A stretch of DNA of 64,000 bases from positions 11,837 to 75,836 of the forward strand of contig DATJNA010000207.1 in the NCBI GenBank assembly GCA_035508435.1, given 5' to 3'. Numbering within the stretch: position 1 is the first letter of the stretch; each line of letters starts with the position of its first letter. Both the position numbers and the translations under genes were made by a program. The notes beneath the pieces were generated by a model that had not been told where the DNA came from, ran no database searches, and saw nothing but the letters and a program-made list of their open reading frames with translations. Below, piece after piece: positions 10,048 through 59,258 of this stretch. Source of the stretch: Acetobacteraceae bacterium. Lineage in GTDB: Bacteria; Pseudomonadota; Alphaproteobacteria; Acetobacterales; Acetobacteraceae.

Positions 10048-10102
10048 CGGCGTTCGTCTCCGGTGAGGCACCCGCCGCGCGGCACCGGCCCCCGCCGGCA
10101 TC

Positions 10103-10126
10103 GGCGTTGGCGTTGGCGTTGGCGTT
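10103..10126. repeat. hexanucleotide repeat (GGCGTT)x4
   Basis: Read directly. It is intergenic between the GT25 and radical SAM genes. Confidence 0.85.
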
Positions 10127-10271
10127 GGCCGGTTGCACGGCCACATCCTGCTTGCAATGGCCGACGCGGCCGTGTTAACGACATGCCGATTCCGTGAACG
10201 GACAACGTCCGATATGATGGTTCAGCGTGGCGACCTGCCCGCTGGGGCCGTTGCCGAGGGGCACTGTCGTC

Positions 10272-11153
10272 ATGCCATCCCTTGAATTCACCTTGATGGT
10301 GGGCTGCCCGCTGATGTGTACATTTTGCCCGCAGGACAAATTGCGCGGCATGTACGGCAAGGCGACGAAGTACTTCACGCTGGAGAATTTCAAGGAGATC
10401 GTCAGGAAGGTTCCCAAGCACGTCCGGATCGACTTTTCCGGGATGGCGGAACCGTGGGCGAATCCCGACGCGACCGAGATGCTGCGCCATGTCCTGACCG
10501 AGGGCTACAGGTTCGCCCTCTATACGACCCTGTATGGCATGGAGCGGACCGATTGCGCGCAGGTGATCGACCTGCTGCGGCGCCACGCCCCGCAGGTGGA
10601 AGTGGTGTGCCTGCATCTGCCCGATCGCAACGGCAATATGCGCGGCTGGAAATACAACGCCGACTATGAGGCGAACCTGATCGACTTCATCAGGCTGGCA
10701 ATGCAGCGTGTGATGCCGAGTTTCGAAGTCATGACCATGGACGAGGGCGGCACACCTCACAAGGATCTCGATCATCTTGGCATCAAGCTCGGCCCCTGGA
10801 TCGGCCATACCCGCGCCGGCAATGTGAGCCTGGAGGATGTGCCCGGGCAGAAGATCTACGTGAAGCCGGAACATAACAGCGCCGTCAGTTGTTCATTCAC
10901 CCGCTTCTACGATCAGAATGTCTGCCTTCCCAATGGCGATGTCGTGCTGTGCTGCATGGATTACGGCATGCAGCACAAGATCGGGAATCTGTTAGAGCAA
11001 GATTATTATGAAATGTTCGCCTCGTCGGGAATTGCGAAGCTGATGGTGGAGAATATGCGGCCGCGGTTTTCGCACGAGTCGCTCTGCAAGACCTGCAATC
11101 GCGCCACGCTGCATGGCCAGCCCAACAGCTATCTGCGTTGGCAGCCGGTGTGA
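10272..11153 (+). CDS. radical SAM protein with Cys-rich (SPASM-like) C-terminal region
   Basis: CX3CX2C cluster GCPLMCTFCPQ near the N-terminus. C-terminal Cys cluster CSF...CLPNGDVVLCCMDYG...CKTCN. One 100-nt hand count (10321-10420) gives 53% G+C, lower than the flanks. The start is ATG 10272 or GTG 10227. Confidence 0.8.
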   Translation: MPSLEFTLMVGCPLMCTFCPQDKLRGMYGKATKYFTLENFKEIVRKVPKHVRIDFSGMAEPWANPDATEMLRHVLTEGYRFALYTTLYGMERTDCAQVIDLLRRHAPQVEVVCLHLPDRNGNMRGWKYNADYEANLIDFIRLAMQRVMPSFEVMTMDEGGTPHKDLDHLGIKLGPWIGHTRAGNVSLEDVPGQKIYVKPEHNSAVSCSFTRFYDQNVCLPNGDVVLCCMDYGMQHKIGNLLEQDYYEMFASSGIAKLMVENMRPRFSHESLCKTCNRATLHGQPNSYLRWQPV

Positions 11154-11352
11154 TCGACCGGTGCGCGCGCCAGGCCAAGGTTGATCCACGCCGCCGCCCG
11201 CAGAATCCTGGCTGCGCCCCGGCCTGGCTGCGCCCCGGGCACGACGATGCCAGCCCGCTACAGGCGGCTGCGTGCCACCATCGTGCCGGGTGCTCCGGCG
11301 GGACCCGACCGCTGCCCGATGGCCGCGCCCGTGTCGCCGTGCCGGGCGGCTG

Positions 11353-41826: not shown

Positions 41827-42327
41827 AGCCGCAGTCTTGCACCACACCGCCATGGCAAGCAGCGCGATCCTGCATCGTTGACCGGCCGGGGATGACCTCG
41901 AAGCTGGTTTTGCGGCCTGCCAATTTCGGACCTGGCCAGCATCGAAACCGGTCACGCCGCGGTCTTCCCGGGTAGCCGGCATGGCCCGGTCCGCCGGCGG
42001 CCATCGATAACGGACGAGCGCCTCCGGCGAGCCAGGCCTCCACGCACGCTGCCACCCGCGGCGTAAGGCTGCGTCGCGCGGCGAAACTTGCCTTCGCGAC
42101 GGTGCGCACTGCGGCGTGGCATCGCCGTGCGCAGCCTCGCAGAGAGCACCCCGCCTGACAGACGATCACACTACGGAAGAATGTATTTCATCTACCGGGG
42201 AGGTGCACGCCCGTCGACCGCCATTACTTTGTAGCTGGGCGACTGCTGCGTCAGACAAGGCAGGGGTCCGCGGCGTCAGAGACGCCGGTCGTCCGGGGGG
42301 AAATACGGTGGGAATTCGAGGCACAAG

Positions 42328-43836
42328 ATGGCTGAACTGAGCTCGGCGTCGGGTTCGCCCATCCTCGAATTGCATGGAATCAGCAAAACCTTTCACGGCG
42401 TGAAAGTCCTGGATCAGGTCGGTCTCAGGATTCTCCCAGGCGAGGTGATGGCACTTCTCGGAGAGAATGGCGCCGGCAAGTCGACGCTGATGAAAATTGT
42501 GAGTGGCATTACCGAGGCCGACGCGGGCGGCACGATTCGCCTGGGCGGAACCGAGGTTCGGTTCACCAATCCTCGCCAGTCGGTGGCGGCCGGCATTTCC
42601 ATGATTCATCAGGATTTGAACCTCCTGCCTGGCCTGAGCGTGGCCGAGAACCTGTTTCTCGGCCGCGAGCCGTTGAACCGATTTGGGCTGATCGACTGGG
42701 CCATCCTTGATGCGCAGGCGCGCAAGCTGCTTGCCGTCGTGCACCAAAAGATCGACCCGACGACCCCAGTCCATCGTCTGGGTGTCGGACAGCAGCAGAT
42801 GGTCGAGATTGCTCGCGCCCTGTCGCTGAATGCCAGCCTGATCATCATGGATGAGCCTACCGATTCGCTGACCGACGTCGAAACGGATATCTTGTTCGAC
42901 GCGATCCGTCAGCTCCGCGCTCAGGGCAAGGGCGTCATCTATATCTCGCACCGGCTGAGCGAGATCTTCAGGATCTGCGACTCCGTCACCGTGCTGCGCA
43001 ACGGCCATACGGTTGCCGCCGAACCCGTGGCGGGCCTCGACGAGGCGACCCTGATCCATCACATGGTCGGCCGCGAGATCGGCGAACAATACCCGCATAA
43101 ACCTGCCGCCAACGGGCCCGTCGGACTGCGTGTCGATCACCTCTCGGCACCGGGGATCGAGGATATCTCGTTCGAAGTGCACAAGGGCGAAGTCGTCGGC
43201 TTCGCCGGTTTGATGGGTGCCGGCACCCCGCAGCTTGGCAGGACTTTGTATGGCGCGCTGGCCGCCCGATCAGGGTCGATCGAAGTCGATGGGCAAAGAT
43301 TGTCGTTGCGCACCCCGGCAGAGGGAGTGCGCGCCGGGATCGCCTATGTCCCCGAGGATCGCAAATCCGAGGGCCTGATCCAGATCCATTCCGTGCTGAG
43401 GAACATGACGCTCACCGGGCTGGCGCGTTTCGCCGCGCTGCTTGGTTTCATCGTCCATCGCCGGGAACGAGACACCGTGGATCACTATATCAAGACGTTC
43501 AGTATCCGCACCCCGGGTGCGGACGCGGTGGTTGCGACCCTGAGCGGCGGCAATCAACAAAAGGTGGCGCTGGCAAAGGCGCTGATAACCAAGCCGAGGA
43601 TACTCATCCTGGATGAACCGACCCGCGGCGTCGATGTTGGCGTTCGCCGCGAAATATACAGCCTCATCAGCGATCTCAAGGCCGAGGGCCTCGTGATCCT
43701 GTTCATTTCGTCGGACCTGCGCGAGTTGCTTGGCATCGCGGACCGGATCCTCGTCCTGTCACGCGGTCGCCTGTCCGGGGTGTTCAATCAAGGCGAGGCG
43801 ACCCAGGACGCAATCATGCAGCGTGCGGTGGCTTAG
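42328..43836 (+). CDS. rbsA: sugar (ribose-type) ABC transporter ATP-binding protein
   Basis: 502 aa with two NBDs. Walker A GENGAGKST; a degenerate second P-loop; signatures LGVGQQQMVE and LSGGNQQKV. Confidence 0.9.
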   Translation: MAELSSASGSPILELHGISKTFHGVKVLDQVGLRILPGEVMALLGENGAGKSTLMKIVSGITEADAGGTIRLGGTEVRFTNPRQSVAAGISMIHQDLNLLPGLSVAENLFLGREPLNRFGLIDWAILDAQARKLLAVVHQKIDPTTPVHRLGVGQQQMVEIARALSLNASLIIMDEPTDSLTDVETDILFDAIRQLRAQGKGVIYISHRLSEIFRICDSVTVLRNGHTVAAEPVAGLDEATLIHHMVGREIGEQYPHKPAANGPVGLRVDHLSAPGIEDISFEVHKGEVVGFAGLMGAGTPQLGRTLYGALAARSGSIEVDGQRLSLRTPAEGVRAGIAYVPEDRKSEGLIQIHSVLRNMTLTGLARFAALLGFIVHRRERDTVDHYIKTFSIRTPGADAVVATLSGGNQQKVALAKALITKPRILILDEPTRGVDVGVRREIYSLISDLKAEGLVILFISSDLRELLGIADRILVLSRGRLSGVFNQGEATQDAIMQRAVA

Positions 43837-43849
43837 GAGATCCCGGCAA

Positions 43850-44794
43850 ATGCACCCACTGCTACGCCTGCTGTCAAAAAACAAGTCACTGATCGGATTG
43901 ATCGTCCTGGTCGCGGCCATCTCCGTCGCCAGCCCGAACTTCCTCGACATTGGGAATTTGCTCAACGTACTGCGGCAAACCTCGATCAACGCGGTCATTG
44001 CCATGGGCATGACGTTTGTCATTCTCACCGCGGGCATCGATCTTTCCGTCGGCGCCATCCTTGCACTGTGCGGCGCGTTCGCGGCGAGCCTGATCGCAGC
44101 CGGACACGGACTCGGCAGCACAATTCCGATCGTCCTGCTGTGCGGGATCGCGCTGGGCAGCCTGTCCGGACTGGTGATCACCTATGGTGCCGTGCAACCG
44201 TTCATCGCCACATTGGTCAGCATGACCATTTTACGCGGCGTGGTGCTTGTCTACAGCGGCGGCAGGCCGATCGACGCAAGCAGTGCCGCCGCTTCCGATG
44301 CCTTCGGCAGCCTCGGCGAAGGCTATCTTATTGGCATACCGATCCCCGTCGTCGTCGCCGCAATCGCCTTTGCCGGATGCTGGGTGGTTCTTACCCAGAC
44401 ACGCTTCGGCCGCTACGTCTATGCCATCGGCGGCAATGAAAGCGTCGCGCGGCTCTCGGGCGTCAATGTCGCATTGATCACGATCAGCGTGTACGCTGTA
44501 TCCGGGCTGCTTTCCGCCGTCGCCGGAATTATCCTGACCGCACGACTCGAAAGCGCCCAACCGACCGCCGGAACCGGCTACGAGCTCGATGCCATTGCCG
44601 CTGTCGTCGTCGGCGGCACGAGCCTTGCGGGCGGGATCGGCAGCATGTCAGGCACATTGCTCGGCGCGCTCATCATCGGCGTGCTGAACAATGCGCTCAA
44701 TCTGTTGGACGTGTCGTCATATTATCAGGCGATTGCCAAAGGATCGGTGATTTTACTCGCCGTGCTCGTTGATCGGCGCGGCAAGCTTGGATAA
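43850..44794 (+). CDS. rbsC: ribose-type ABC transporter permease
   Basis: A 314-aa polytopic protein of the RbsC/AraH family (TAGIDLSVGAI, GGTSLAGGIGS). Confidence 0.9.
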   Translation: MHPLLRLLSKNKSLIGLIVLVAAISVASPNFLDIGNLLNVLRQTSINAVIAMGMTFVILTAGIDLSVGAILALCGAFAASLIAAGHGLGSTIPIVLLCGIALGSLSGLVITYGAVQPFIATLVSMTILRGVVLVYSGGRPIDASSAAASDAFGSLGEGYLIGIPIPVVVAAIAFAGCWVVLTQTRFGRYVYAIGGNESVARLSGVNVALITISVYAVSGLLSAVAGIILTARLESAQPTAGTGYELDAIAAVVVGGTSLAGGIGSMSGTLLGALIIGVLNNALNLLDVSSYYQAIAKGSVILLAVLVDRRGKLG

Positions 44795-44849
44795 CGGCCA
44801 ATGCACGCCGCATTCGCGGAAGCACTGCGTTCAGGAAAGGAGAGTTGCC

Positions 44850-45776
44850 ATGAGCCGGAAACTGGTTCCGTTGATCGCCATTGTCGGGCTGCTCTGCGCG
44901 GCGACAGGCGTGGCGCGAGCGGCGGACAAGATCGCGCTTGTCGTCTCGACGCTCGACAATCCATTCTTCGTTACCCTGGCCGATGGCGCCAAGGCGAAGG
45001 CCAAGGCACTGGGGCTGGATCTGGTCGTCGTCGATAGCGAGAACGATCCGGCGAAAGAATTGTCTAACGTCGAGGACGTCCTCGATCAGAACGTCAAAGT
45101 GCTGTTGCTCAATCCGGTCGATTCCGACGCTGCCAGGGCGGCGGTCCGCGCGGCGAACATCGGCAAGGTACCCGTCATTACGCTCGATCGGGCGGCCAAA
45201 GGGGCAAAGGTCATCTGCCATATCGCCTCCGACAATGTGGGAGGCGGTAAGCTCGCCGGCGAGCTGATCGTCAAGCGACTTGGCGGCCATGGCAATGTCG
45301 CCGAACTCGAAGGCCAGCCAGGCACGGACGCGGCGCGCGATCGCAGCAATGGGTTCCGCGAGGCGATAGCCGGATCGCCCGGAATCAAGCTCGTGGCCAG
45401 TCAGCCAGCAAATTTCGATCGCACCCAGGGCCTGAACGTCATGGAAAACATCCTTCAGGCGCACCCTGATATCGACGCCGTCTTTGCGGCCAATGACGAG
45501 ATGGCGTTGGGTGCTACCAAGGCGATACAGGCCGGAGGGCGCAAGATCGCCGTGGTGGGCTTCGACGGAACCAGAGACGGCATCGCGGCTGTCAAGAATG
45601 GATCGATGTACGCGACGATTGCTCAGCAGCCGGCACTCATTGGCAGCCTCGGGGTCGAACAAGCGAGCAATGTGATAAGCGGCCACCAGGTACCGGCCAG
45701 CATTCCCGTTCCGTTGAAAGTGATTACCAATGGAGCGGCAACAGTGCATGATCGGGATCAGGCTTCGACACATTAG
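44850..45776 (+). CDS. rbsB: ribose-type ABC transporter substrate-binding protein
   Basis: Signal peptide ending ARAADK, then IALVVSTLDNPFF, typical of RbsB-like periplasmic binding proteins. AGGAAAGGAGAG lies upstream. Confidence 0.9.
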   Translation: MSRKLVPLIAIVGLLCAATGVARAADKIALVVSTLDNPFFVTLADGAKAKAKALGLDLVVVDSENDPAKELSNVEDVLDQNVKVLLLNPVDSDAARAAVRAANIGKVPVITLDRAAKGAKVICHIASDNVGGGKLAGELIVKRLGGHGNVAELEGQPGTDAARDRSNGFREAIAGSPGIKLVASQPANFDRTQGLNVMENILQAHPDIDAVFAANDEMALGATKAIQAGGRKIAVVGFDGTRDGIAAVKNGSMYATIAQQPALIGSLGVEQASNVISGHQVPASIPVPLKVITNGAATVHDRDQASTH

Positions 45777-45851
45777 CCTGCCATTCACAGGACACGCACA
45801 GCACACCATCCCTCGATACGAGGGCAAGACTGATAAGGTGGAGGTACGTCC

Positions 45852-46040
45852 ATGGCTGACCCATCGCAGCGGCAACTTGCCGTCTTCGGGAGCGTCAACG
45901 TCGATTTTTCCGGTCTTGCCAGCCATCTTGCGAAAGCCGGAGAGACGCTGCGAGGGATGCGATATCGCATTGGGTGCAGGGATCAGGTGACCGAGCGGGC
46001 GGGCGCGGCCGCGCGCGTGCAGGTCTTCGCGCATTGGCTC
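45852..46040 (+). pseudogene. ribokinase N-terminal remnant (about 60 codons, degraded)
   Basis: The translation QLAVFGSVNVDFSGLASHLAKAGETLRG mirrors the ribokinase N-terminus (compare the intact copy at 47569: IAVVGSSNADLVTYITRMPARGETLEA), after which similarity decays. It is read in frame into the porin track ORF. Confidence 0.4.
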
Positions 46041-48504: not shown

Positions 48505-48595
48505 CGGACAGTATGCTCACAAGTTGAGGGTGTTGCGCGCCGGCCCGATCACCCTCACCCTGCCTCGCCCGCTGCCGCGGGAGAGGGAGAAGTTG

Positions 48596-49951
48596 ATGCG
48601 CCAGATGACTCTTGTCGGCTTCTTGCAGGCCCAGAACTGCACCAATTTCGTCGGTTCCTGGCGCCATCCGGAAGCCGCCCCCGATTTCATGTCCGCCGAT
48701 TATTACCGCCGCGTCGGCCGCGCACTGGAAGCGGGAAAATTCCATCTCGGCTTCTTCGACGACCGTCTCGCCATGCCGGACCGTTACGGCGGCGACCACG
48801 CCCACACCGTCGCCAACGGCATCCGCTGCGTGAAAATGGACCCGGTCACCATCCTCACCGTGATGGGGATGGCGACCGAAAAGCTCGGCCTCGGGTCAAC
48901 CTACACCACCAGCTATTACGAACCCTTCCACGTCGCCCGCGTGTTCGCGACGCTGGACCTGATGAGCAATGGCCGCGCCGCCTGGAACGTGGTCACGTCG
49001 ATGAACGACGGCGAAGCGCTGAACATGGGCCAGCCCTCGCATGGCGACCACGACGGCCGCTACGACCGCGCCGACGAGTTCATGGAAGTCGTGCTCGGGC
49101 ACTGGGATGCCTGGGACGACGACGCCATCGTCTGCGACAAGACCACCGGCTTGTTCGCCCATCCCGACAAGGTGCGGCGCCTGGACTACGGGGGAAGATT
49201 CTTCCGCTCACGCGGGCCGTTCACCGTACCGCGCTCGGCGCAAGGCCATCCGGTGATCATCCAGGCCGGCCAAAGCGGCCGCGGCCGCCGCTTTGCCGCG
49301 CGATGGGCGGAACTGGTGTTCGTCAACTACCACAATTTGGCAGCCGCCAGGCAAGACTACGCCGCCTTCAAGACCCAGATCGCCGAGGCGGGACGCGATC
49401 CCGACAAGGTGCATGTCGCCGCCGGCACCTATTACGTCGTTGCGCCGACCCGCTCCGAGGCGGAAGACAAGGTGGCGCTGATCGACAGGCTGCCCAAGGA
49501 AATCGACCAGCTTTCGCTGTTGTGCGAAGTGCTGAACGTCGATCTGTCGCAGAAGCCGCTGGACGAACCCTGGACCGAGGATGAGATCCAGACCTGGACC
49601 GGCGCACAGGGCCTGCGCGATCGCATCTATCGTGTGCTGGGCAAGCGCAATCCGACCACCCGCGACTTCATGGAGGTGTCGCAGCGCGGCACCTTCCGCG
49701 ACCATCCGCGCTTCGTCGGCAGCCCGAAGGATGTCGCGGACGGGATGGAGGAATGGTTCGCCGGCCGCGCCTGCGACGGGTTCGTGGTGGCGGCTTCGCA
49801 TGTGCCGGGCACCTATGAGGATTTCGCCCGCCTGATCACGCCGGAGCTGCAACGCCGCGGCCTGCTGCAGCAGGACTATCGCGGCACCACGCTGCGGCAG
49901 AATCTCGGCCTCGACCGGCCGGCGATCGGTGACTGGCGGCGGGCGCGGTAA
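48596..49951 (+). CDS. NtaA/SnaA/DszA-family FMN-dependent (LLM class) monooxygenase
   Basis: 451 aa. The N-terminal MTLVGFLQAQNCTNFVGSWRHPE and the TYTTSYYEPFHVARVFATLDLMSNGRAAWNVVTS segment are typical of this family. GAGAGGGAGAAG lies upstream. Confidence 0.88.
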   Translation: MRQMTLVGFLQAQNCTNFVGSWRHPEAAPDFMSADYYRRVGRALEAGKFHLGFFDDRLAMPDRYGGDHAHTVANGIRCVKMDPVTILTVMGMATEKLGLGSTYTTSYYEPFHVARVFATLDLMSNGRAAWNVVTSMNDGEALNMGQPSHGDHDGRYDRADEFMEVVLGHWDAWDDDAIVCDKTTGLFAHPDKVRRLDYGGRFFRSRGPFTVPRSAQGHPVIIQAGQSGRGRRFAARWAELVFVNYHNLAAARQDYAAFKTQIAEAGRDPDKVHVAAGTYYVVAPTRSEAEDKVALIDRLPKEIDQLSLLCEVLNVDLSQKPLDEPWTEDEIQTWTGAQGLRDRIYRVLGKRNPTTRDFMEVSQRGTFRDHPRFVGSPKDVADGMEEWFAGRACDGFVVAASHVPGTYEDFARLITPELQRRGLLQQDYRGTTLRQNLGLDRPAIGDWRRAR

Positions 49952-50006
49952 CAGTGCCCAATCGGTCGTACCCGCAGGCGTCGCTGGGCGACCCGCCGAG
50001 AGAGCA

Positions 50007-50453
50007 ATGATGCGCAAGACGCTGCTGCGTGTGATGGGCGGGCTGAACACCTGGATCTACCGCAGCAGCAAAGGGCGGCTGTTGGGGCGGTTCCCGTCGG
50101 GAGCGCCGGTGTGCCTGCTGACCACCATCGGCCGGCGCTCGGGCCAGCCGCGTACCGTGCCATTGCTGTATTTGCAGGATGGCGCGGATTACGTCGTGGT
50201 AGCCTCGCAGGGCGGCGCACCGGAGCATCCGGGCTGGTTCCATAATTTGCAAGTGCAGCCGCGCGCGGAGATCGAACTGGGTACCCGGCGTCTGGCGGTC
50301 ATCGCGCAGCAGGTCAGCGAAGCGGAACGCAACGCGCTCTGGCCCCGGTTGGTGGCGATCTATCCGCCCTACGAGACCTACCAGCGCCGCACCACGCGTC
50401 GCATCCCGGTCCTGCGGCTGACGCCCGTCCCGGTTGGAAACGCCACGCCTTGA
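50007..50453 (+). CDS. DUF385 / Ddn-like nitroreductase-family (deazaflavin-dependent-type, split beta-barrel) protein
   Basis: 149 aa. The pattern LLTTIGRRSGQPRTVPLLY...VVVASQGGAPEHPGWFHNL...LWPRLVAIYPPYETYQ matches the family. Confidence 0.8.
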   Translation: MMRKTLLRVMGGLNTWIYRSSKGRLLGRFPSGAPVCLLTTIGRRSGQPRTVPLLYLQDGADYVVVASQGGAPEHPGWFHNLQVQPRAEIELGTRRLAVIAQQVSEAERNALWPRLVAIYPPYETYQRRTTRRIPVLRLTPVPVGNATP

Positions 50454-50608
50454 AGCGCTTCTCACGCTCCCTGCCACCAATCATGTCTGGCGTGACGGCC
50501 GGCAAGCGGCCGGCCATGTGGCACCGGCACTGGCGCTGCCGGGGCAGCGCTACCGAATGCCGTGACAGCGCTGCCCGACACCAAGGCAGTCAGGCAGAAC
50601 CGGGCCTG

Positions 50609-51220
50609 GTGTCGCGATGGCTCATGGCCGCGCTGCTGTCAGGTCTGGCGACGGCCGCGGCACACGGCCCCGCCGCAGCGGCAGCGCCGCCGCTGACGCA
50701 TTTGACCTGCGAGGGCGCCATCCTGGGCTTCCAACAGCTCGGCGACCACCGATTGGCATCCTACCAGGATGCGCACGGACACCGCATCGAGCTCTGGTGC
50801 ACCAGACGCGTCTTCGACTCCCAGTTTGATCTGCGCGTCGCCGTTGCGGCACCGGCGCATGGCGGCGATGGTCGTCCAGACCCGGTCGCGCCCGGCCGCC
50901 TGGCCACCGTGGGCGGGTGCTTTTTCGATAACGGCGACAATCAAGGCCCGATCTTCGTCGTCGATCCAGGCGGTGGCTATGTGACGGTCGCATGGGTCAC
51001 CCAGGATCCCGCCGATCGGCGGAAATATCGTTTCAGCTACGATTTTGCCAGCAAACTCGTCACGGTCACGGCGACGGTTGCCGGCTGCGCTCCGGTGTCG
51101 AAGGTCGTCGCGCCGCAGCCCAGCTATCGGCGGCTGGCAAAGTTGCTGCCACATCCGGAGACCCAGTCCTGCGCGCTCCCCCCCATGGGCGGCTTCAATC
51201 CGACAGCACCCACACCGTGA
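50609..51220 (+). CDS. hypothetical, probably secreted Cys-containing protein
   Basis: The in-frame GTG at 50609 gives the signal-like VSRWLMAALLSGLATAAAHGPAAAAA. Alternative starts are at 50516 and 50624. No family recognised. Confidence 0.5.
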   Translation: MSRWLMAALLSGLATAAAHGPAAAAAPPLTHLTCEGAILGFQQLGDHRLASYQDAHGHRIELWCTRRVFDSQFDLRVAVAAPAHGGDGRPDPVAPGRLATVGGCFFDNGDNQGPIFVVDPGGGYVTVAWVTQDPADRRKYRFSYDFASKLVTVTATVAGCAPVSKVVAPQPSYRRLAKLLPHPETQSCALPPMGGFNPTAPTP

Positions 51221-51370
51221 CGGAAACCGCCGGCCGGGAGCCGGCGCCGGTGTCAGGGATGCAACCGACATTGACAGTTCGCGCGGCACGCGAGACCATA
51301 CCGGCAAAATCGACCCAAAGAGCATGCAGACTGTGATGCTGAGATGACCGCAAGCTAGGGAGTGTCCGAT

Positions 51371-52894
51371 ATGCTGGAACGGGTGAAGTATCCCGAATCG
51401 ATTGAGCCGTTGGTGCGATTTATCGAGGAAACACCACGCGATCAGATCCTTGACCTCACGCTGGAGAAGCTGCGCGACGGGGTGCCGATCAAGACCATGC
51501 TGACCGCCTCGGCCCTGGCGGTCACCCGGTCCGCCGATCTGCCGCCCGGCCACCACGGGGGCCCGCTGCACCCGCTGGCCGGCCTCTACGCGATCTCGAG
51601 GCTGGTGGATCGCCTGGAAGGCGAGGACAAGTTCCTCCCCGTGCTGCAGCACGTGGCGCTGTCCAACAAGCACATCCACGACCCGGTCACCTCGCCGTTC
51701 CAGTTGCTGGAATTCGCGCCGCTGGATGCCACCGTTGGCATGAACCGTCTGGAAGACATGGCCTATGACGGTTCCGGCGACGTGGTCACCGCCGCGGGCG
51801 TCGAAGCCGCCAAGGCCGCCTTCTTCCGTTGCTGCGAGCGCGGCGAAAGCAACAAGGCCGATCACCTTTTCCAGTGGCTGTGGCAGCATGTCCCGCCGAT
51901 CGAGGCGTTCGACCTGCTGATGACCGTCGCGATTCCGAAGAACGGCCTCGACGACCACTATTTCCTGTTCCCCGCCTATCTGTGGCGCGGCATGGATCAA
52001 TACCTGGGCTGGGAGCATATGTCGCTGCTGATGCGGCCGGCGGTGCGCTATGTCACCCGCTTCCCGCAGGCGCGCATTGTCCCCGAGGCCGAAGCGCTGA
52101 TCGAGAAGCACAACTTGCTCGGCCGCATCCTGCGCCAGCGCACCGGTGACGACGAGACCGCGGCGATCGGCAAGCTGGGCGAGGGCATCCGCGACGTCAC
52201 CGCCTACAGCGAAATCCCGGTGCTGATTGCCGAGGCGCTGGTGGACGGGCTGTCGATGGAAGGCGCGGGCGAGGCGCTGTCGATCGGCGCCGCTGGCTTG
52301 TTCCTGCGCTCGCTCACCGGCAATCCGATGGATGTGCACCTGCACACCTCAGCCAATGTGCGCCGCTGGCTGCTGAAGCTCGACGGCCTCAGCATCAAGA
52401 ACAAGCTGCTGGTGCTGCTGACCTGGCACACCGGGCCGGAGGTGAAATCGACCCAGCACCGCATGGAGCCAACGGCGCAGCCCGATCCGGAAGCGGTGGC
52501 CGCGCTGCCGGTGCGGTCGCAGGAGGAGCTGCTGGAGGCGATCACCCAGAGCATCTACACCCAGCCGCCGACGGACTGGTCGACCGTGTCGAACCTGGGC
52601 CGCATGCGCGCGGTGCCCGAGGTGAAGATGACGGTGAACCTGGCGCAGCAATACGTGAACCTGCGCTACGATCCGGAGGCGCTGATCAAGCGCCTGGCCG
52701 ACATCGTCTGCCACGACAGCTTCACCGAGATGCACGCGTTCAAGCATCACCAGGCGGTGGTTGAGGAATTCCGCACCACCCGCGAACCGTGGCGCTGGAT
52801 GCATCTGGTGTGCGGCTGCCAGGCGGCGGCGATTTCCTTCGGCAAGAACATGGAAGTGTTCGAGGAAGTGCTGGAGCTGCTGCACGCGGCGTAG
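51371..52894 (+). CDS. hypothetical protein (507 aa), no recognisable family
   Basis: A long ORF with balanced, protein-like composition. AGGGAG lies 8 nt upstream of ATG 51371 (the track start GTG 51362 sits too close to the SD). Host-like high GC. Confidence 0.7.
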   Translation: MLERVKYPESIEPLVRFIEETPRDQILDLTLEKLRDGVPIKTMLTASALAVTRSADLPPGHHGGPLHPLAGLYAISRLVDRLEGEDKFLPVLQHVALSNKHIHDPVTSPFQLLEFAPLDATVGMNRLEDMAYDGSGDVVTAAGVEAAKAAFFRCCERGESNKADHLFQWLWQHVPPIEAFDLLMTVAIPKNGLDDHYFLFPAYLWRGMDQYLGWEHMSLLMRPAVRYVTRFPQARIVPEAEALIEKHNLLGRILRQRTGDDETAAIGKLGEGIRDVTAYSEIPVLIAEALVDGLSMEGAGEALSIGAAGLFLRSLTGNPMDVHLHTSANVRRWLLKLDGLSIKNKLLVLLTWHTGPEVKSTQHRMEPTAQPDPEAVAALPVRSQEELLEAITQSIYTQPPTDWSTVSNLGRMRAVPEVKMTVNLAQQYVNLRYDPEALIKRLADIVCHDSFTEMHAFKHHQAVVEEFRTTREPWRWMHLVCGCQAAAISFGKNMEVFEEVLELLHAA

Positions 52895-52903
52895 CCAACG
52901 AAA

Positions 52904-52959
52904 CTCCCTCCCCCCTAGCGAGATCGAGCCGTTAGCCTGGTGAAGGCGGGGGGAGGGAG
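52904..52959. repeat. 12-bp perfect inverted repeat (stem-loop) just after the 507-aa gene
   Basis: ctccctcccccc (52904-52915) pairs with ggggggagggag (52948-52959) across a 32-nt loop. It starts 10 nt after the stop codon and has no T-tract. Confidence 0.7.
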
Positions 52960-53352
52960 CGTTACGAGACACTTGCACCGCGCCCTCTAACGATTGGCAC
53001 TAATCTCAAAAGCATTGACCAGCCGCAAGTTGCCGTGCCACCACTGAAGAAGGGCGGCGCCTGGAGGCAGAGAGGGCCAACCGCGTAGCCGCGGCACGGA
53101 ACAGGCACTTTTCGCCATCCCAGCGTGTGGGGCAACTCTGAACAGTGGGACCGCGGTGGCGGCGCGCGCTGGTGTTCTGACCCTAACGCTTCGATGCCAT
53201 TGGGCATCGACAATCGGCATCGTTACCAGGGCCCGCGTGGGATACAAGCGCCAGAGTCACAGCACTAGCATGCCGGCGCGACAGGTGCGACCGCTCGGAT
53301 GCAGCGACCGCCAGGGCTAGGGCTCCGCGTCGGCTGGACGTCTGGGCTATCA

Positions 53353-53459
53353 CGGCAGTAAACGAACCGCGCAGCGGCCAAGGCATGGGAAACGTCGGTC
53401 CCGCCGGCATCCCCGGGGAAACCGACCACTGGCAAATTGCTGAAAAGCGTTTACTGCCG
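53353..53459. repeat. nested inverted repeats in the non-coding leader of the islet
   Basis: Outer 12-bp perfect pair cggcagtaaacg (53353-53364) / cgtttactgccg (53448-53459). Inner pair gtcggt (53394-53399) / accgac (53421-53426) around the palindrome ccccgggg (53411-53418). Confidence 0.7.
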
Positions 53460-53969
53460 GCTAACGGCGCAAGGTTAGGTTGCCGAACCATCATACTGCG
53501 CGACAACATTGCGTAAAAGGCACCGCCTCGCTTGCCTTTCGACTTTCGTTGCGCACGCGTGGAGATTTTCAGCGACCGCCAGTCTACCTGCCAAACAAGC
53601 CGTGTGAGCAGCGCACGCAATCGAAGCGCGAAGAGCCGCATCACGGCGATAAAGGTGACAAGCCGGCAAGCGCAGATCGGCCGGTTCGACCGGGTAGGTG
53701 CAACAATGCCTAGCTCGTCGTCGGTCATCTGATTGCGGATTATGTCAATGCCGAACCTCGCACAGGGAATCCGAGCCAAGCACTATGCCGGACCTGGTAC
53801 AGGCCATTCTTTATTGGCGTCGCTCCCTGCAAGCCCAAATCGCTTTCGCTGCCGGTCTTGTCCACGCTCAAAGATGCCCAAGGTTAATACAGTTGCGCAT
53901 TTGTCCGCAGGTCGTAAGATACCCCAGCCACGCCGCAACGGGAGAAGAAGCTTATCAAGGGGGGAGACG

Positions 53970-56528
53970 ATGGCCAGACCTATAATGTCGGCGATGGAAA
54001 ATCCTGCGGCCGAAATCAAGGATAGAGTGCAGCTTCTGTTTAGTATCCACCACGCAGTACCTCGTAGCCTGCCGGGGCCGTTCCTTGCGACCCATTTTGT
54101 GAGACTTAACGAGTCCCCGGAAGATCGGTCGTTTGCGCGTGCTGCCAAGTTAGCGCAAAAGTGCTTTGGGGAAGATATAGATCAGGACCACCCTGAGCTC
54201 TTCCGGTCGATGGCTGGTATTCGGTCGAAAATTGTCACGACTATTCGGTCCCATTATGAGTCGATTTTAGAGAATGCGCCGGCAATGTTCGTCTTTGGCT
54301 CTGAGGCTGCCGTCATCGACCTCCTTGCTCGGCGCGTTACTGACGAACTTGGTCATCCGGAAGGATTGGTCGAAGCATTCCGAGTTTTTATGCCTCGGTT
54401 TCGAGAATTCTGGAAAGAAACCTACAAGGATTATCTATCAAAACTCGGCAGGGAGATCGCCGGCATTCGTTTTGATGCAGACCCGAAAGTCGCTGAACTC
54501 GGGGGCATACGTCACTGGCTAGAGGAAAACGAACGATTGGATCAGCGCCAATCCGAGATAGAGACAGCCCTTGGAGACTTTCGCTACCTGAGACTCCGCT
54601 CCCACGCCGCCGACGAATTTGTAAGAAACAACGTCCGTTATCACGTCCGTTGGGAGAGAATACCTCAAGGGTGGAATTATTCGTTTATAGAGACTCTCAA
54701 CCTCAGCCCCCGCGCTATACGGCATCGTGATCTGTTAGCACAGCGGCAGCAGAAGCTGGACTATATCGAATACATAACCGGTATGGTGACCTGCTTCGCG
54801 GTAGACCCCAACGTTCCGAATGCGGCTGGATTGGCCGAGGTACCGGACGATGTGTGGTTTCCGGGGGCGACGTTGGCGGGTGCGCACTACCTAATGCTCG
54901 GCGTTGATGCGCTGATCGCTATCTGCGTAGCATGGCGCCGTATATCGGGCTTCCCTGACGTGGCCAGTGAAGGCGAAGACGAGTTCAGGGAGTACGCAAG
55001 CTTCCCCGGACTAGCACCCAGCGTGAATGCGAGAACTGACAGGGTCGCCGAAACGGTGAAAAGGTTTCGTAAGATTGGAGCGGAAACAGGGATAGATGAA
55101 AAAGAACTTCATCGGCGGGCCCGAGAATTTATAAGGTCTATGGATGGAGGGCACGTCAGACGAAGGGCCGCGGTAGCAGAACTCATCCGGATCTGCCTCG
55201 TAACACTGCGGCCGGAACGGATCTCTGAGACGCTTCGGCTGCATACTATGTCCACCGTCCCTAAGGAAGCGATCAACGCCATACTTGAACTGGACATCGT
55301 TCCGGCCAGCTACGATCTCACACTGGCTGAGTATCAAAGTTTGGCTATTGTTCGTTTGATTGAGAGAGACGGGACCGCAATAACGGATCCGTCCGTCTAT
55401 GACTTTCTTGGATCGATGGTCATAGAAGGTGTTCAAAGCCACAACACGTCAAAAGAGGTCCGCTGCGCAATCTTCACAGCACTGGCACACCTTACCCGCG
55501 AATTCTGGGTATCGGCGATGGGTGGTTCTGCACACTCAATGATGCACGATGCGGATGATGATTACGTCGCGAGCTCAATGGCTGACTTCCAATGCCTATA
55601 CTTTTCGAACTTTGTGCCGCTCGGCAAGGAGCTGTTCACGCGCACCATCTTTGTGGACGTGGGTTTGGGGCCCTATCAGAGAGCGCGCATGCTGCAACGC
55701 TTTGCCAATATTCTCAGTTATCGCTCACTGGCGATTAGAGATCTGGCCCGCGTCCGTAACGCGGTGGATGGTCTATTGGATGTGAGCAGAGGACTAAACG
55801 ACATCCAATCGATCATGGCAATACCGCGAGCATTCGGGGACGGAGAGGAGCCTCGATTTCTCGAACTGAACCTCGGACGAGTCATTGAAATGGCGGCGCG
55901 GGCAGGTTACATGAACTCGTTTCTGACCTACGGTATAGTCGGGCGTCGGATGTCGGCAGCCAGTTACGTAGAGCAAATACGCGAACGTTGCGCAGACGTT
56001 CGGGAGGAACGACTCCGGAATTACCCCATGCTGATAGACTTCTTGGAACGGAGGCTGATGCACTCAGTACGCAATTATGATCGGATGGAGATGCACTATA
56101 ATGCGGTGACCCACAGGATAAATGCTTTAATGGACATGATTCGTACACGCCTCAACGCAGTCCAAACGCATGAGATGTCTGACAACATCGGTGAGATGGC
56201 ACGAACGGCAAGGACAATGACAGTAGCTTCCGAAAATCTCCAGCGGGCAGCCGACCGTGTAGATATCAATCTGCGGGCTCAGCTGGACTTGCAAGTGGCT
56301 GCGGAAGTAATTGTTTTGTTTGGCGGCAGCTACTATGCTTTCGAGATCGTTCGTGCGGTATCCAGCTCTGTGCCTAGACTCCAACAAGTTTCTGATTGGG
56401 CCCTCGTATGCATCGGTGTGGTTGCTGCCGTTGGTGCCCGGATCGCGGTTGCTCCGGTGACCCGGCATGCGATTCATCTCAGTCACCGTTCTGTTGGCAG
56501 ATTACTGCGTATCCTAAGACTGCGCTAG
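53970..56528 (+). CDS. orphan 852-aa protein: unassigned N-terminal ~520 aa plus a DUF3422-like long-helix / 2-TM C-terminal module
   Basis: ATG 53970 is preceded by AAGGGGGGAGA. Hand counts of two 100-nt samples give 50% and 47% G+C, and the codon usage is atypical for this window. The C-terminal segments GPYQRARMLQRFANILSYRSLAIRDL, VREERLRNYPMLIDFLERRLMHSV and MIRTRLNAVQ, plus two terminal hydrophobic helices, resemble DUF3422 as I recall it. Confidence 0.75.
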   Translation: MARPIMSAMENPAAEIKDRVQLLFSIHHAVPRSLPGPFLATHFVRLNESPEDRSFARAAKLAQKCFGEDIDQDHPELFRSMAGIRSKIVTTIRSHYESILENAPAMFVFGSEAAVIDLLARRVTDELGHPEGLVEAFRVFMPRFREFWKETYKDYLSKLGREIAGIRFDADPKVAELGGIRHWLEENERLDQRQSEIETALGDFRYLRLRSHAADEFVRNNVRYHVRWERIPQGWNYSFIETLNLSPRAIRHRDLLAQRQQKLDYIEYITGMVTCFAVDPNVPNAAGLAEVPDDVWFPGATLAGAHYLMLGVDALIAICVAWRRISGFPDVASEGEDEFREYASFPGLAPSVNARTDRVAETVKRFRKIGAETGIDEKELHRRAREFIRSMDGGHVRRRAAVAELIRICLVTLRPERISETLRLHTMSTVPKEAINAILELDIVPASYDLTLAEYQSLAIVRLIERDGTAITDPSVYDFLGSMVIEGVQSHNTSKEVRCAIFTALAHLTREFWVSAMGGSAHSMMHDADDDYVASSMADFQCLYFSNFVPLGKELFTRTIFVDVGLGPYQRARMLQRFANILSYRSLAIRDLARVRNAVDGLLDVSRGLNDIQSIMAIPRAFGDGEEPRFLELNLGRVIEMAARAGYMNSFLTYGIVGRRMSAASYVEQIRERCADVREERLRNYPMLIDFLERRLMHSVRNYDRMEMHYNAVTHRINALMDMIRTRLNAVQTHEMSDNIGEMARTARTMTVASENLQRAADRVDINLRAQLDLQVAAEVIVLFGGSYYAFEIVRAVSSSVPRLQQVSDWALVCIGVVAAVGARIAVAPVTRHAIHLSHRSVGRLLRILRLR

Positions 56529-56752
56529 AGCTGGCGGTTTTGCTGACCATACTTCGGGAAAATGGATGTTCGACGGTAATGGCAAAACCTAGAGCATTGC
56601 CCCGCAGAATAGCGATATGGATTGCTACTATCAGCGGTTCCACGGATGCTGCTGTAAGTTCGATGCGAGCTTTATCCGCGGGGGAAGGGAGAGTCGATTC
56701 GCTGACGGCAAATATGGAACTGACCGAGGCGCCGATCGCCTCCGCGTTGCCG

Positions 56753-58141
56753 TTACGCCCGCCGCGGCCGTGTGCCGGGCTCCTGTCGCGGCATCGCCTG
56801 CTGCAACGGCACGCTCGGCTGCGGCAAACTCGTTGCGTTCGCCGCGGCGCGCCGCAAGGCCGCCGCCGTCTCGGGTAGCATCGGCACGTCCATCCGTGCC
56901 GGCTCGCCGAAGCCAAAGGCATGCGTCAGGTCGCCGCAGGTGCGCCGCCGCCAATCGCTCAGGTTTGGAATTTCCACCCCGAAACGGGTTTCCATCAGCC
57001 GCAGTGTGGAGGTGTGGTCGAACGTCTCGCCGCACACATAGCCGCCGCGGCTGAACGGCGAGATCACCAGGCACGGCACGCGGAATCCCAAGCCTACCGG
57101 CTTCCCATCGACGAACTCGCCCGGCGTTCCGGGCTCCGGCAGCGGCGGCACGACATGGTCGAACAAGCCGTCGTTCTCGTCGTAGTTCAGGATCAGCGCG
57201 CTGCGCGCCCAGAGCGACGGGTTTGACCACAGCGCCGCCAGCACCTGCGCCGTATGATGCTCGCCCGCGGCGGGCAGGTAGGACGGGTGCTCTGTCACCG
57301 TCGAGGGCGGCACGATCCACGTCACCTGCGGGATGTTGCCGCTGCGCAGATCGGCGAGCAATTCGTCGAAGCCACGATTGCGCATCAGGTTGTCGAACAG
57401 GTCCGATGTCGGCGAGGCTGCGGCGAAAGCGGGGAACCATTTGCAGACGTTGCAGCCGTAGTCGTCGACGTCGTGATAGACCCGCCACGTGATGCCGGCG
57501 CGTTGCAGACGCTGCGGATAGGTCTCCCACCAGTAGTGCGTGCCGCGGTTGTCGAGCGCGGGACCGCCTGCCTTGCCCTCCGGGTCGATCGTCGCGGTCA
57601 TCAGGTAGAAGCGGTTCGGATGCGTCGGCCCCAGCATGGAGCAATGATAGCCGTCGCAGATCGTGAATGCGTCGGCGAGCGCGTGGTAGAAGGGCAGATC
57701 GTCGCGCGTCAGATACCCCATGGTCAGTGGCGCGACATCGCCGTTCACCTTGCGATGTGCCGGAATCCACGCATCCATCGCGCCGTGGTTCAGGCAGCCG
57801 TGCAGCGGCCCCCAACTGTGGCTCAGGTCGTGCAGGCGTTGCGCGCTGGTGGTGGCGCAGTTCAGCCGGAACGCCAGCACGTAACCGTCGGCGTTCCCTG
57901 GGTCGGGCTGAAAGAACACGCTGCGGCCGGAGGCGAGCCGCAGTGCCAGCGGATCATCGAACCCGCGCACGCCGCGCAGCGTGCCGAAATAGTGGTCGAA
58001 GGAGCGGTTCTCCTTCATCAGGATGATGATGTGGTCGATATCTCTCAGTTGTGCCGGCGCCGCGGCGGCTGATGCAGCCGCAGGCAGCCCGGCCAGCGCG
58101 GCGGAAGCCCGGAGGAAATGGCGGCGGGAAATCTCGGTCAT
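56753..58141 (-). CDS. Tat-signal phosphoesterase-family protein (phospholipase C/PlcN-type catalytic domain only, possibly truncated)
   Basis: Twin-arginine signal MTEISRRHFLRASAALAGL, then DHIIILMKENRSFDHYFGTLRGVRGFDDP, typical of phosphocholine-specific PLC/acid phosphatase. The product is 462 aa and ends at ...QEPGTRPRRA. Confidence 0.85.
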   Translation of the reverse strand: MTEISRRHFLRASAALAGLPAAASAAAAPAQLRDIDHIIILMKENRSFDHYFGTLRGVRGFDDPLALRLASGRSVFFQPDPGNADGYVLAFRLNCATTSAQRLHDLSHSWGPLHGCLNHGAMDAWIPAHRKVNGDVAPLTMGYLTRDDLPFYHALADAFTICDGYHCSMLGPTHPNRFYLMTATIDPEGKAGGPALDNRGTHYWWETYPQRLQRAGITWRVYHDVDDYGCNVCKWFPAFAAASPTSDLFDNLMRNRGFDELLADLRSGNIPQVTWIVPPSTVTEHPSYLPAAGEHHTAQVLAALWSNPSLWARSALILNYDENDGLFDHVVPPLPEPGTPGEFVDGKPVGLGFRVPCLVISPFSRGGYVCGETFDHTSTLRLMETRFGVEIPNLSDWRRRTCGDLTHAFGFGEPARMDVPMLPETAAALRRAAANATSLPQPSVPLQQAMPRQEPGTRPRRA

Positions 58142-58319
58142 GGCGGCAGCCTATGCCCGCGCGCCGCACTTGCCCACGGAAAATGCCGGCCCGCATCGAG
58201 CTTTCACACCGCATCGGCGGCCGCGCGTCCGATCTCACCGCGTGTCCCGCCCCACTTGTGGAAGCCGGGCCACGGCGCGATCCTGCCGCCAGTCAACGCA
58301 ACAACCGGAGGAAGCGCGC

Positions 58320-59258
58320 ATGTCCATTTTCGTTGTCGGCGGTGCCGGCTTCATCGGCATTCGCCTGATCCCTCTGCTGGTGTCACGCGGCGAGCAAGTC
58401 ACCTGCATGGACATCAACCCGCAATCACCGGTGCTGACCGCGCTGGGCGAGAAGGTGAAGCTGGTGCGCGGCGATGTGACGCAGTTCGACGACGTGATGG
58501 CCGCCATGGCCGTGGCGCGGCCGGACCGCGCGATCAACCTGTCCTACATGCTGGGCAGCGAGCATGCCCCGCATGTCGCGCTGAAGCTGAACATCCTCGG
58601 TATGGACAACTGCTTCGAGGCAGCGCGGCTGTGCGGCGTGAAGCACGTCGTGTACGCCAGCTCACTGGCTGTGAACGGCGAGCAATTCCATTATGGCGAT
58701 CGTGCCATCACCGAGGACGATTTCCGCCACGGCCACGTGCAATACGCCATGCACAAGATCTTCAACGAGTTCCAGGCGCAGGACTATCGGGAAAAGTTCG
58801 GCATCACGATCACCGGCATCCGCCCGGCGAACGTGACGGGACCGGACAAGGTGCGCGGCTCGGTGGATCATGTGAACTGCATCACCCAGCCGGCGCGCGG
58901 CAAGCCGATCAGCTTCCCGTTTGCCGATGCGATGCGCTGCCCCATCCACGTGGACGACGTGGCGGAAGTCTTCGCCCGCGTATTGCTGTCGGACAAGCCG
59001 AAGCACGCGGTCTACAGCACCGGCGGCACGCCGATCAGCCTGGGTGAACTGTCCGACATCGTCCGCGGCTTTCTGCCCGACGCGCGCATCAGCTTTGACA
59101 AGCCGACCGGCGGCAAGGAGATCTCCGGCAACTACCTGATCGACAATACCCGTCTGGTGCAGGAGTTCGGCGTGCAATACCGCCCCTACCGCGAGCGCGT
59201 ATTGCAGATCATCAACGAAGTCCGGACCCAGGAGGGATTGCCCGTGGTGCGGGCGTGA
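58320..59258 (+). CDS. NAD-dependent epimerase/dehydratase family protein
   Basis: MSIFVVGGAGFIGIRL Rossmann motif and YAMHK (YxxxK). ATG 58320 is preceded by GGAGGA. Confidence 0.88.
   Translation: MSIFVVGGAGFIGIRLIPLLVSRGEQVTCMDINPQSPVLTALGEKVKLVRGDVTQFDDVMAAMAVARPDRAINLSYMLGSEHAPHVALKLNILGMDNCFEAARLCGVKHVVYASSLAVNGEQFHYGDRAITEDDFRHGHVQYAMHKIFNEFQAQDYREKFGITITGIRPANVTGPDKVRGSVDHVNCITQPARGKPISFPFADAMRCPIHVDDVAEVFARVLLSDKPKHAVYSTGGTPISLGELSDIVRGFLPDARISFDKPTGGKEISGNYLIDNTRLVQEFGVQYRPYRERVLQIINEVRTQEGLPVVRA

Follow-up and report, generated by a model that had tools for sequence, protein, structure and literature searches.

A single-gene, low-GC acquisition in an Acetobacteraceae chromosome encodes an enlarged DUF3422 membrane protein

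DUF3422 (PF11902) is a family of proteobacterial membrane proteins that is widespread but has no solved structure; it corresponds to COG4949, 'uncharacterized membrane-anchored protein', and its canonical members are ~430 amino acids (aa) long. The subject of this report is a gene for an expanded, 'long-form' member of the family, an 852-aa protein encoded at positions 53970-56528 of the forward (+) strand in a 64-kb stretch of a soil Acetobacteraceae chromosome (contig DATJNA010000207.1; this whole stretch is called the window). The low-GC segment that carries the gene is a single-gene horizontal acquisition, and its predicted product is, judging by sequence comparison, a complete and enlarged DUF3422 protein. 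An identical protein is already labelled DUF3422 in GenBank. The long form is distinguished by two inserted modules, predicted to be cytoplasmic.

Two other groups of described proteins are useful for comparison. The CorA/Mrs2/ZntB proteins, a superfamily of Mg2+ channels (PF01544), have an architecture that DUF3422 resembles in structure searches. In some type III CRISPR systems, the effector that SAM-AMP activates is a membrane protein of the CorA family (PMC12255297), and this effector is the functional analogy behind the reading of the gene that is weighed below. The second group consists of single-gene abortive-infection and exclusion proteins and the cargo of defence islands.

Architecture of the 852-residue protein

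The gene was delineated from its open reading frame, a Pfam match and an AlphaFold2 model, and its stop codon occupies positions 56526-56528. A Shine-Dalgarno-like sequence, AAGGGGGGAGA, can be read at 53957-53967 (+) and ends 2 nt before the ATG at 53970. Three gene callers have chosen three different starts, namely 53970 (852 aa), 53985 (847 aa, NCBI) and 53748 (926 aa, JGI). Because the homologues begin 15-40 residues before the conserved EIHYRVPR, ATG 53970 or 53985 is favoured over 53748. In GenBank, HUB15021.1 ('DUF3422 family protein [Acetobacteraceae bacterium]') has the same sequence (100% identity), and the 90% cluster of the protein contains only start variants of this one sequence (847, 852 and 926 aa). 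The Pfam profile PF11902 matches residues 527-748 with an E-value of 5.9e-21 (75.5 bits against a cut-off of 25), spanning profile positions 142-351 of 418. NCBIfam and PHROGs gave no significant family for the protein, and exact-sequence look-ups among contigs with its 926- and 847-aa versions had no match.

The original prediction for this segment had been made by reading the sequence. The frame, the ATG, the Shine-Dalgarno sequence and every peptide that it quoted are present, and the DUF3422 module that it proposed for the last ~330 aa is the one matched by Pfam. Its further statements, that the first ~520 aa match nothing recognisable and that a large unknown sensor-like region is joined to a membrane module, have to be replaced. 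In profile-profile alignment (hhalign), the long forms and a profile of 40 canonical DUF3422 proteins match with a probability of 100% and an E-value of 2.3e-42, residues 526-801 of the target corresponding to canonical residues 150-393. The N-terminal domain aligns as well. The unedited alignment gives an E-value of 3.6e-4 and a probability of 37%; excision of residues 68-195 changes these values to 3.6e-9 and 96% (reversed control, E 0.11), although the E-value of 3.6e-9 is somewhat optimistic because the excision bounds were picked after the unedited alignment had been viewed. Thus residues 1-67 and 196-330 belong to the DUF3422 N-terminal domain.

The AlphaFold2 models lead to the same assignment. 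The model of the target has a predicted local distance difference test (pLDDT) score of 85.3 and a predicted template modelling (pTM) score of 0.80, and that of a canonical protein (P0061) has scores of 92.2 and 0.79, respectively. The elements follow in equal order in both: a helix, a strand and a second helix come first, then three strands, a single long strand and another three strands. After these come two long hairpins of helices, the stalk, which is a very long helix, a turn and the final helix. Extra helical blocks are present in the target model at about residues 68-203 and 326-532, and its stalk consists of 113 residues compared to 88 in the canonical model. All 22 invariant and 29 near-invariant positions of the family are kept in the target. 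Because the N-terminal domain aligns and the secondary structure elements follow each other one to one, the 852-aa protein is, according to the alignments and the models, a single and complete DUF3422 fold into which two helical modules have been inserted. The same two results rule out the interpretation of residues 1-520 as a novel sensor domain. The protein exceeds the Pfam gathering threshold, is homologous over the whole domain and has the C-terminal transmembrane (TM) motif of the family; it departs from the typical contiguous size of ~420-450 aa, being 852 aa long with the domain interrupted twice.

The N-terminal alpha/beta domain is split by the first insertion. Part 1 of the domain, residues 1-67 (53970-54170, +), is composed of a helix, a strand (38-46) and a second helix (50-67) in the hhalign alignment and the models, and contains the motif IHHAVPRSLPGPFLATHF, which corresponds to the canonical E.HARP...P..H.A. 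Insertion 1, residues 68-195 (54171-54554, +), appears as a gap in the profile alignment and is all-helical in the model, with helices in the range 70-200. It is specific to the long forms and conserved among them, with LFVFG and VTDE.G as conserved motifs. Part 2 of the domain, residues 196-330 (54555-54959, +), has strands at 204-209, 222-231, 234-243 and 300-311 in the alignment and the models. In its motifs, VRWERIPQGWNYSFIE takes the place of the canonical LKWERHTEF.YT, and FPGATLAGAHY that of LPG.L.VA. At the level of the two families, the paired motifs are R..L.EIH.RVP..L..P..ATHF and R..L..E.HARP...P..H.A, LRW.R.PQ.WNYTF.E and LKWERHTEF.YT, and FPG..LAGAHY and LPG.L.VA, the long-form motif being given first in each pair.

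Insertion 2, residues 331-525 (54960-55544, +), is without counterpart in canonical DUF3422 and is predicted by the model to be a helical module (352-517) preceded by a disordered linker (333-346). Residues R398 and W513 of this insertion are invariant in the close family. Neither insertion has a sequence match in Pfam or in the Protein Data Bank (PDB). The DUF3422 core, residues 526-775 (55545-56294, +), is defined by Pfam, hhalign and the model. It comprises three strands (533-563, with the motif CLYFSNFVP...FTRTIFVD), a helical bundle (568-676) and the cytoplasmic stalk helix (688-775).

The C-terminal part of the protein is a predicted membrane hairpin. TM1, residues 776-796 (56295-56357, +), is continuous with the stalk in a single modelled helix, 688-800. 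TM2, residues 808-830 (56391-56459, +), is followed in the sequence by a basic tail, residues 831-852 (56460-56525, +). Hydropathy (~776-796 and 808-830) thus agrees with the two terminal hydrophobic helices that had been noted in the original prediction. The lack of a signal peptide and the positive-inside rule suggest that the bulk of the protein and its tail are cytoplasmic. TM1 of the long-form family carries the motif A-[D/E]779-x5-G-G-[T/S]-Y788-Y789, in which the acidic residue is found in 31 of 37 sequences and the Tyr-Tyr pair in 28-29 of 35. Its canonical counterpart, VEGLS..A..YY, is nearly invariant, and the E...YY pattern is kept. The G-M-N (GxN) sequence that could be expected after TM1 of a CorA protein is absent from the target and from the consensus, positions 795-801 being not conserved.

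The resemblance of DUF3422 to CorA comes from structure comparison. When the PDB is searched with the canonical model in Foldseek, CorA/Mrs2 Mg2+ channels take the first five places (E 2.8e-3 to 1.2e-2): CtMrs2 (8q8p, E 2.8e-3), human MRS2 (8ip4 and 8tul), Thermotoga maritima CorA (8tmi) and Campylobacter jejuni CorA (8zah). The five alignments comprise 283-456 columns and are full length in four of the five cases. The target model independently retrieves eleven chains of T. maritima CorA (E 0.05-0.34). A Foldseek search of viral structures returned only long-helix noise. Sequence searches of the PDB, run with the protein itself and with each of the two family profiles, found no match and no CorA chain, PF01544 is absent among the families listed for the 40 canonical DUF3422 members scanned, and no sequence method used here links DUF3422 to a solved structure or to another Pfam family. 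A CorA-like architecture of DUF3422 is therefore a resemblance suggested by sub-significant matches of models, consistent but unproven.

The acquired segment and its surroundings

The G+C content of the gene is 0.534, which is 6.5 standard deviations below the background of 0.660 +/- 0.019 (z -6.5, 2.5-kb windows). Its third-position G+C (GC3) is 0.565, compared to 0.755-0.883 in seven neighbouring genes. The codons AGA, ATA, TTA and AGT, which are rare in the neighbours, are 4- to 50-fold more frequent in the gene. Per 1000 codons, AGA occurs 17.6 times in the gene versus 1.5 times in the neighbours, ATA 22.3 versus 0.4, TTA 5.9 versus 0 and AGT 7.0 versus 1.9. The tetranucleotide distance of the gene from the rest of the 64 kb reaches z = 10.5, and each of the seven most deviant tetranucleotide windows overlaps the foreign-gene stretch, which is the sole strong compositional outlier in the window. 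The deviant composition and codon usage that characterize a genomic islet are thus found at the gene. They had been predicted from the excess of the same four codons, judged by eye, and from three hand counts, which are exact (0.50 at 54181-54280, 0.47 at 55261-55360 and 0.70 at 52501-52600). There is a much weaker, secondary outlier at 42001-46000, with a tetranucleotide distance of 0.023-0.026, which holds the maximum of the background (z about 3), and a single 1-kb window at 10251 (~10251-11250) has a G+C content of 0.598.

The second mark of an islet, absence from a close relative, is also found. The closest relative, L003, lacks the gene; it is the one informative relative in this comparison, and the contig of L004 stops at the junction. 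The locus is bounded upstream by a gene for a 510-aa protein (51362-52894, +) and downstream by an epimerase gene that starts at 58320. In L003, the 510-aa gene is 92% identical in protein and 88% in DNA sequence, and the downstream flanking gene is 86% identical in DNA. There the 510-aa gene directly precedes the epimerase gene with a gap of 168-180 bp, compared to 5.4 kb in the window. The junction 52894|58307 of the window corresponds to 11526|11694 of L003, and the gene order downstream is shared. Besides the foreign gene itself, the extra 5.4 kb (52895-58306) contain 1075 bp of spacer, a low-GC tail of 224 bp and a phosphoesterase gene.

The foreign segment is thus real, but its bounds, previously placed at 52895 and 56752, have to be redrawn in two respects. 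The low-GC stretch extends only from ~53400 to ~56650, whereas the insertion or deletion relative to L003 is larger, 52895-58306. The spacer (52895-53969), which separates the foreign gene from the conserved 510-aa gene, begins with ~500 bp of host-like G+C (0.642 at 52895-53399) and then drops from 0.64 to 0.58 (53400-53969). The tail (56529-56752, G+C 0.549) lies between the convergent stops of the foreign gene and the phosphoesterase gene, and there is a weak terminator-like hairpin at 56523-56536. The phosphoesterase-family gene (56753-58141 of the complementary strand, -; PF04185, phospholipase C / acid phosphatase type, Pfam E 8e-104) is host-like in composition (GC3 0.844) and, like the foreign gene, missing at this place in L003. 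It may have been acquired, either together with the foreign gene or in a second event from a donor of matching composition, or it may have been lost from L003.

The original prediction had stated that the islet lacks an integrase, a transposase, a tRNA and an attachment (att) repeat, and this is correct. No tRNA was found within the 64-kb window. Direct and inverted repeats at the flanks are short matches at chance level, none of which is convincing as att, and the ends of the flanking genes are not duplicated inside the islet. The only long open reading frame of the spacer, 53183-53779 (-), contains no integrase, transposase or recombinase domain and has no Pfam match. The spacer has no similarity to the fetched loci or to plasmids and contains no recognisable gene, RNA or repeat; an Rfam scan of 52800-58400 found no family, and a promoter scan showed no excess, the + strand being without a match. 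A perfect 12-bp inverted repeat, CTCCCTCCCCCC ... GGGGGGAGGGAG, missed by the repeat finder, was read straight from the sequence at 52904-52915 and 52948-52959. It has a 32-nt loop, begins 10 nt past the stop codon of the 510-aa gene and is not followed by a T-run. It may be a terminator or a protein-binding site. At the matching place in L003, between the 510-aa gene and the epimerase gene, there is a palindromic element, CATTGCGAGGAGCGAAGCGACGAAGCAATC (L003 11594-11630), that resembles repetitive extragenic palindromic (REP)-type sequences and is absent at the equivalent position of the window.

The 510-aa gene has 333 relatives in GTDB genomes with 69-92% identity, and nearly all of the carriers are metagenome-assembled genomes of Acetobacteraceae or Rhodopila from soil. 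The protein has no match in Pfam, PHROGs or PADLOC and thus represents a conserved family specific to this lineage. The gene is situated at a break of synteny, the sequence of the window upstream of 51268 being without a match in L003. A 256-aa reading frame (50450-51220, +) has a hydrophobic N-terminal stretch and a host-like GC3 of 0.755; it has no family match and was not found in the fetched relatives. At 48524-50453, a gene for a luciferase-like monooxygenase overlaps the start of a gene of the F420H2-dependent quinone reductase family (PF04075), a pair that hints at F420-linked redox chemistry in an Acetobacteraceae genome.

Long-form genes in other genomes

A word-indexed protein search returned only the protein itself, and at this close range it is the orphan that the original prediction took it for. 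The label of HUB15021.1 and more distant relatives do not agree with that description. A full HMMER scan of 1.84 billion representatives found 195 relatives at E <= 1e-3, 27 of them at E <= 1e-30, including full-length relatives of 770-960 aa with 28-40% identity. About 40 of the listed relatives are long forms (600-970 aa), and canonical proteins of ~430 aa enter the scan only at E-values of 1e-9 to 1e-5. The long-form clade is rare and consists almost entirely of singleton metagenome clusters, with one named member, from Candidatus Acidoferrum. The look of some homologues had suggested a eukaryotic (fungal) origin, which is ruled out by this member (Acidobacteriota) and by the bacterial contexts. 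A metagenome scan with the 15 closest sequences resulted in 7 loci. A plasmid collection contains only short canonical forms, with a coverage of at most 49%.

Long-form genes are lower in G+C than their flanks at 16 of 16 loci (about 14 of which are independent), by 5-26 points, in hosts with 54-70% G+C. Examples are L094 (0.42 in the gene versus 0.68 in the flanks), L091 (0.52 versus 0.69) and L104 (0.50 versus 0.64). The G+C content of two canonical short-form genes equals that of their flanks. No partner gene is conserved across the long-form loci.

The neighbours of the close homologues are varied. At L088-90 and L099, a type I restriction-modification system (HsdS, HsdR and a YgjP-like peptidase) is upstream of the homologue and a serine resolvase is downstream. 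At L086 (7562-15771), the homologue directly follows the virion genes of a podovirus-like prophage (GP7, Bbp16, T7_gp14). It is flanked upstream by a 733-aa PD-T4-6-like kinase (PADLOC E 1.7e-47) and downstream by an 820-aa DpdE/ZorD/DrmD-like SNF2 helicase (E 3.5e-57), and this stretch may be a prophage defence hotspot. RadC, mad8/HerA-like ATPases and a trypsin-endonuclease protein adjoin the homologue at L087. At L092, an insertion sequence transposase is upstream, and a RES pair and a Mu-like transposase are downstream; L094 has an rve integrase upstream and L083-85 have a DUF2442/DUF4160 pair downstream. Only ordinary chromosomal genes surround the homologues at L091, L095, L096 and L098. 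Overall, six of the ten close contexts hold restriction-modification, PD-T4-6-like kinase, SNF2-helicase, toxin-antitoxin-like, transposase or prophage genes. In three of the ten, adjacent defence genes are recognised by PADLOC or Pfam (L086, L087 and L088/L099), and in a further three the neighbours are of toxin-antitoxin-like or mobile-element type.

Among the more distant long forms, three (L102 and L103 included) are low-GC single-gene inserts amid housekeeping genes. At L104 (5609-11036), the long-form gene (8001-10595) is positioned between a complete lon gene and a duplicated 63-codon fragment of the lon 3' end (89% aa identity). This att-like scar looks like the product of site-specific integration into the 3' end of lon, and the insert contains no recombinase.

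Possible functions and comparison with known systems

The long-form genes are rare and patchy, are lower in G+C than their surroundings, have no partner gene and occur repeatedly in defence or mobile settings, which makes a mobile, self-contained conflict effector their most likely role. The reading that is preferred, on a tentative basis, is that of a mobile membrane channel that acts alone, resembles CorA and has an enlarged sensor in the cytoplasm, and that may be an effector of abortive infection; by analogy it is plausible, though it falls short of probable. The polypeptide is predicted to consist of a cytoplasmic N-terminal alpha/beta domain, a helical bundle and a stalk helix of ~110 residues that runs into TM1, followed by a short outside loop, TM2 and the basic cytoplasmic tail, with the two family-specific insertions residing on the cytoplasmic domain. 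The protein would assemble into an oligomeric channel of the inner membrane, presumably pentameric by analogy. TM1 would line the pore, where its conserved acidic position (D/E779) would form one ring and its Tyr-Tyr pair (Y788-Y789) another. Gating would fall to the enlarged cytoplasmic domain, the insertions might sense a cue such as phage infection, and the open channel would permeabilise or depolarise the membrane as in abortive infection. The channel activity, the gating and the defence role are all deduced, and the neighbourhoods of the homologues provide circumstantial support for the last. The findings on composition and architecture are solid; the defence role is derived from a handful of neighbourhoods.

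A number of results weigh against this reading. PADLOC does not recognise the protein (the best match among 5027 models is ZorA, E 0.026, 10.9 bits) and PHROGs finds nothing for it. No publication was found on DUF3422, PF11902, COG4949 or IPR021830. There are no relatives in 2.9 million IMG/VR contigs or in 50,697 INPHARED phage genomes. The CorA matches never reach a Foldseek E-value of 1e-3 and have TM-scores of 0.16-0.31, the target has no match to the CorA profile PF01544 at E <= 1, and the CorA GMN motif is missing. The window is without a mobility gene, a tRNA or an att repeat, and here, as in four of the ten close contexts (L091, L095, L096 and L098), only ordinary chromosomal genes are found nearby. 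The context counts are raw, taken without a background rate, so that the enrichment near defence genes is suggestive only. Finally, canonical DUF3422 genes have a native composition and are found in metabolic neighbourhoods, such as formaldehyde detoxification in Sphingobium and, in Burkholderia, an electron transfer flavoprotein (ETF) with a gamma-aminobutyric acid (GABA) permease. The DUF3422 fold itself is therefore probably physiological.

In the alternative that survives best, a protein of the same anatomy has a physiological role, as an accessory channel for ions or small solutes or as a membrane regulator for metal, pH or osmotic stress, with the insertions serving as regulatory, ligand-binding modules. 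Homologues would then adjoin defence islands by coincidence, integration hotspots being where any gene that moves horizontally ends up. This alternative is possible and somewhat unlikely. It is in accord with the native canonical genes amid metabolic and transport functions, with the fact that the best structural matches are Mg2+ channels, with the ordinary surroundings in the window and at four of the ten homologue contexts, with the distant long forms amid housekeeping genes (L102 and L103) and with the lack of recognition by any defence model. However, a G+C content below that of the flanks at all 16 loci and the near-exclusive occurrence in singleton clusters would be unexpected for an accessory transporter. 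The GMN motif of CorA, which determines ion selectivity, is absent, and three independent close contexts are bona fide defence islands.

The gene might instead be cargo that serves a mobile element, for example a membrane protein for superinfection exclusion or for blocking entry, or the addiction module of a prophage or an integrative element, the element having decayed here to the gene and ~1 kb of non-coding remnant. The homologue directly behind the virion genes of the podovirus-like prophage would fit this explanation, as would the transposases, integrase or resolvase that flank other homologues, the duplicated lon 3' end that brackets a distant relative in the manner of integrative elements and the featureless 1075-bp upstream spacer of intermediate G+C. 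Nevertheless, it is improbable. The viral collections named above hold no relative and the plasmid collection holds short canonical forms only. The window contains no element remnant, att duplication or recombinase fragment. Moreover, the gene occurs with very different elements, and this fits independently exchanged, defence-type cargo better. The lack of close homologues outside its own 100%-identical cluster and the three different predicted starts might suggest that the gene has lost its function and is decaying after an old transfer, but this is very improbable given the intact 852-codon frame with its strong Shine-Dalgarno sequence, the preservation of all 22 invariant and 29 near-invariant positions, the confident AlphaFold model (pLDDT 85.3) and an unameliorated composition that argues for a recent rather than an old arrival.

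The preferred reading of a mobile channel can be extended to the family as a whole. Long-form DUF3422 proteins would then be an unrecognised family of stand-alone mobile abortive-infection effectors, CorA-like pentameric channels that carry their own sensor in the two insertions and collapse the membrane potential on infection. In this complete form the proposal is speculative, and unlikely. If true, a new single-gene family would join the known defence systems, and CorA-type channels would have been recruited to immunity a second time, independently. If the proposal is refuted, the long form keeps its use as a natural 'domain-insertion' variant from which to learn what DUF3422 channels sense. 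In either case, a CorA/Mrs2-like architecture has been suggested for DUF3422, a rare long form that behaves like mobile conflict cargo has been described, and the family has gained a testable hypothesis, that of a gated membrane channel acting as a self-contained effector.

The closest described proteins are the canonical DUF3422 proteins, to which the target is homologous over their whole length. The two share the motifs E.H.R.P...P..H, W.R....YT, PG..L.A and, in the core, GR..QRL.EI.TYR, as well as the stalk helix, the E...YY pattern of TM1, TM2, the basic tail and the order of the secondary structure elements. The target is twice as long, however (852 versus ~430 aa), because of the insertions of ~128 and 195 aa and a stalk that is ~25 residues longer. 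Furthermore, the long form is compositionally foreign wherever it has been examined, whereas the two canonical genes are native.

The predicted architecture of the target resembles that of the CorA/Mrs2/ZntB proteins: a cytoplasmic N-terminal alpha/beta domain, long helices, a stalk that continues into TM1, a short loop outside the membrane before TM2, a basic C-terminus and an N-in/C-in topology. The Foldseek E-values of this resemblance are only 2.8e-3 to 0.3, and there is no detectable sequence relation to PF01544. No G-M-N follows TM1, in which an acidic residue and two adjacent tyrosines are conserved instead. The CorA effector of type III CRISPR systems (PMC12255297) is similar in that a CorA-type membrane protein acts as an immune effector and a cytoplasmic domain receives the signal. 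That effector is encoded in a CRISPR-Cas locus and needs SAM-AMP made by Cas10 (PMC12255297), whereas the target comes from another sequence family and stands alone, with neither a cas gene nor a signal synthase or lyase near it or near its homologues in the contexts examined.

The last comparison is with single-gene abortive-infection and exclusion proteins and with defence-island cargo. The target differs from these in matching none of the 5027 models of PADLOC-DB v2 and in that ~40% of the contexts are without a defence or mobile-element gene. It resembles them in being a single gene, AT-rich relative to its host and patchy in distribution, with homologues that adjoin restriction-modification, PD-T4-6-like, SNF2-helicase and toxin-antitoxin-like genes as well as recombinases.

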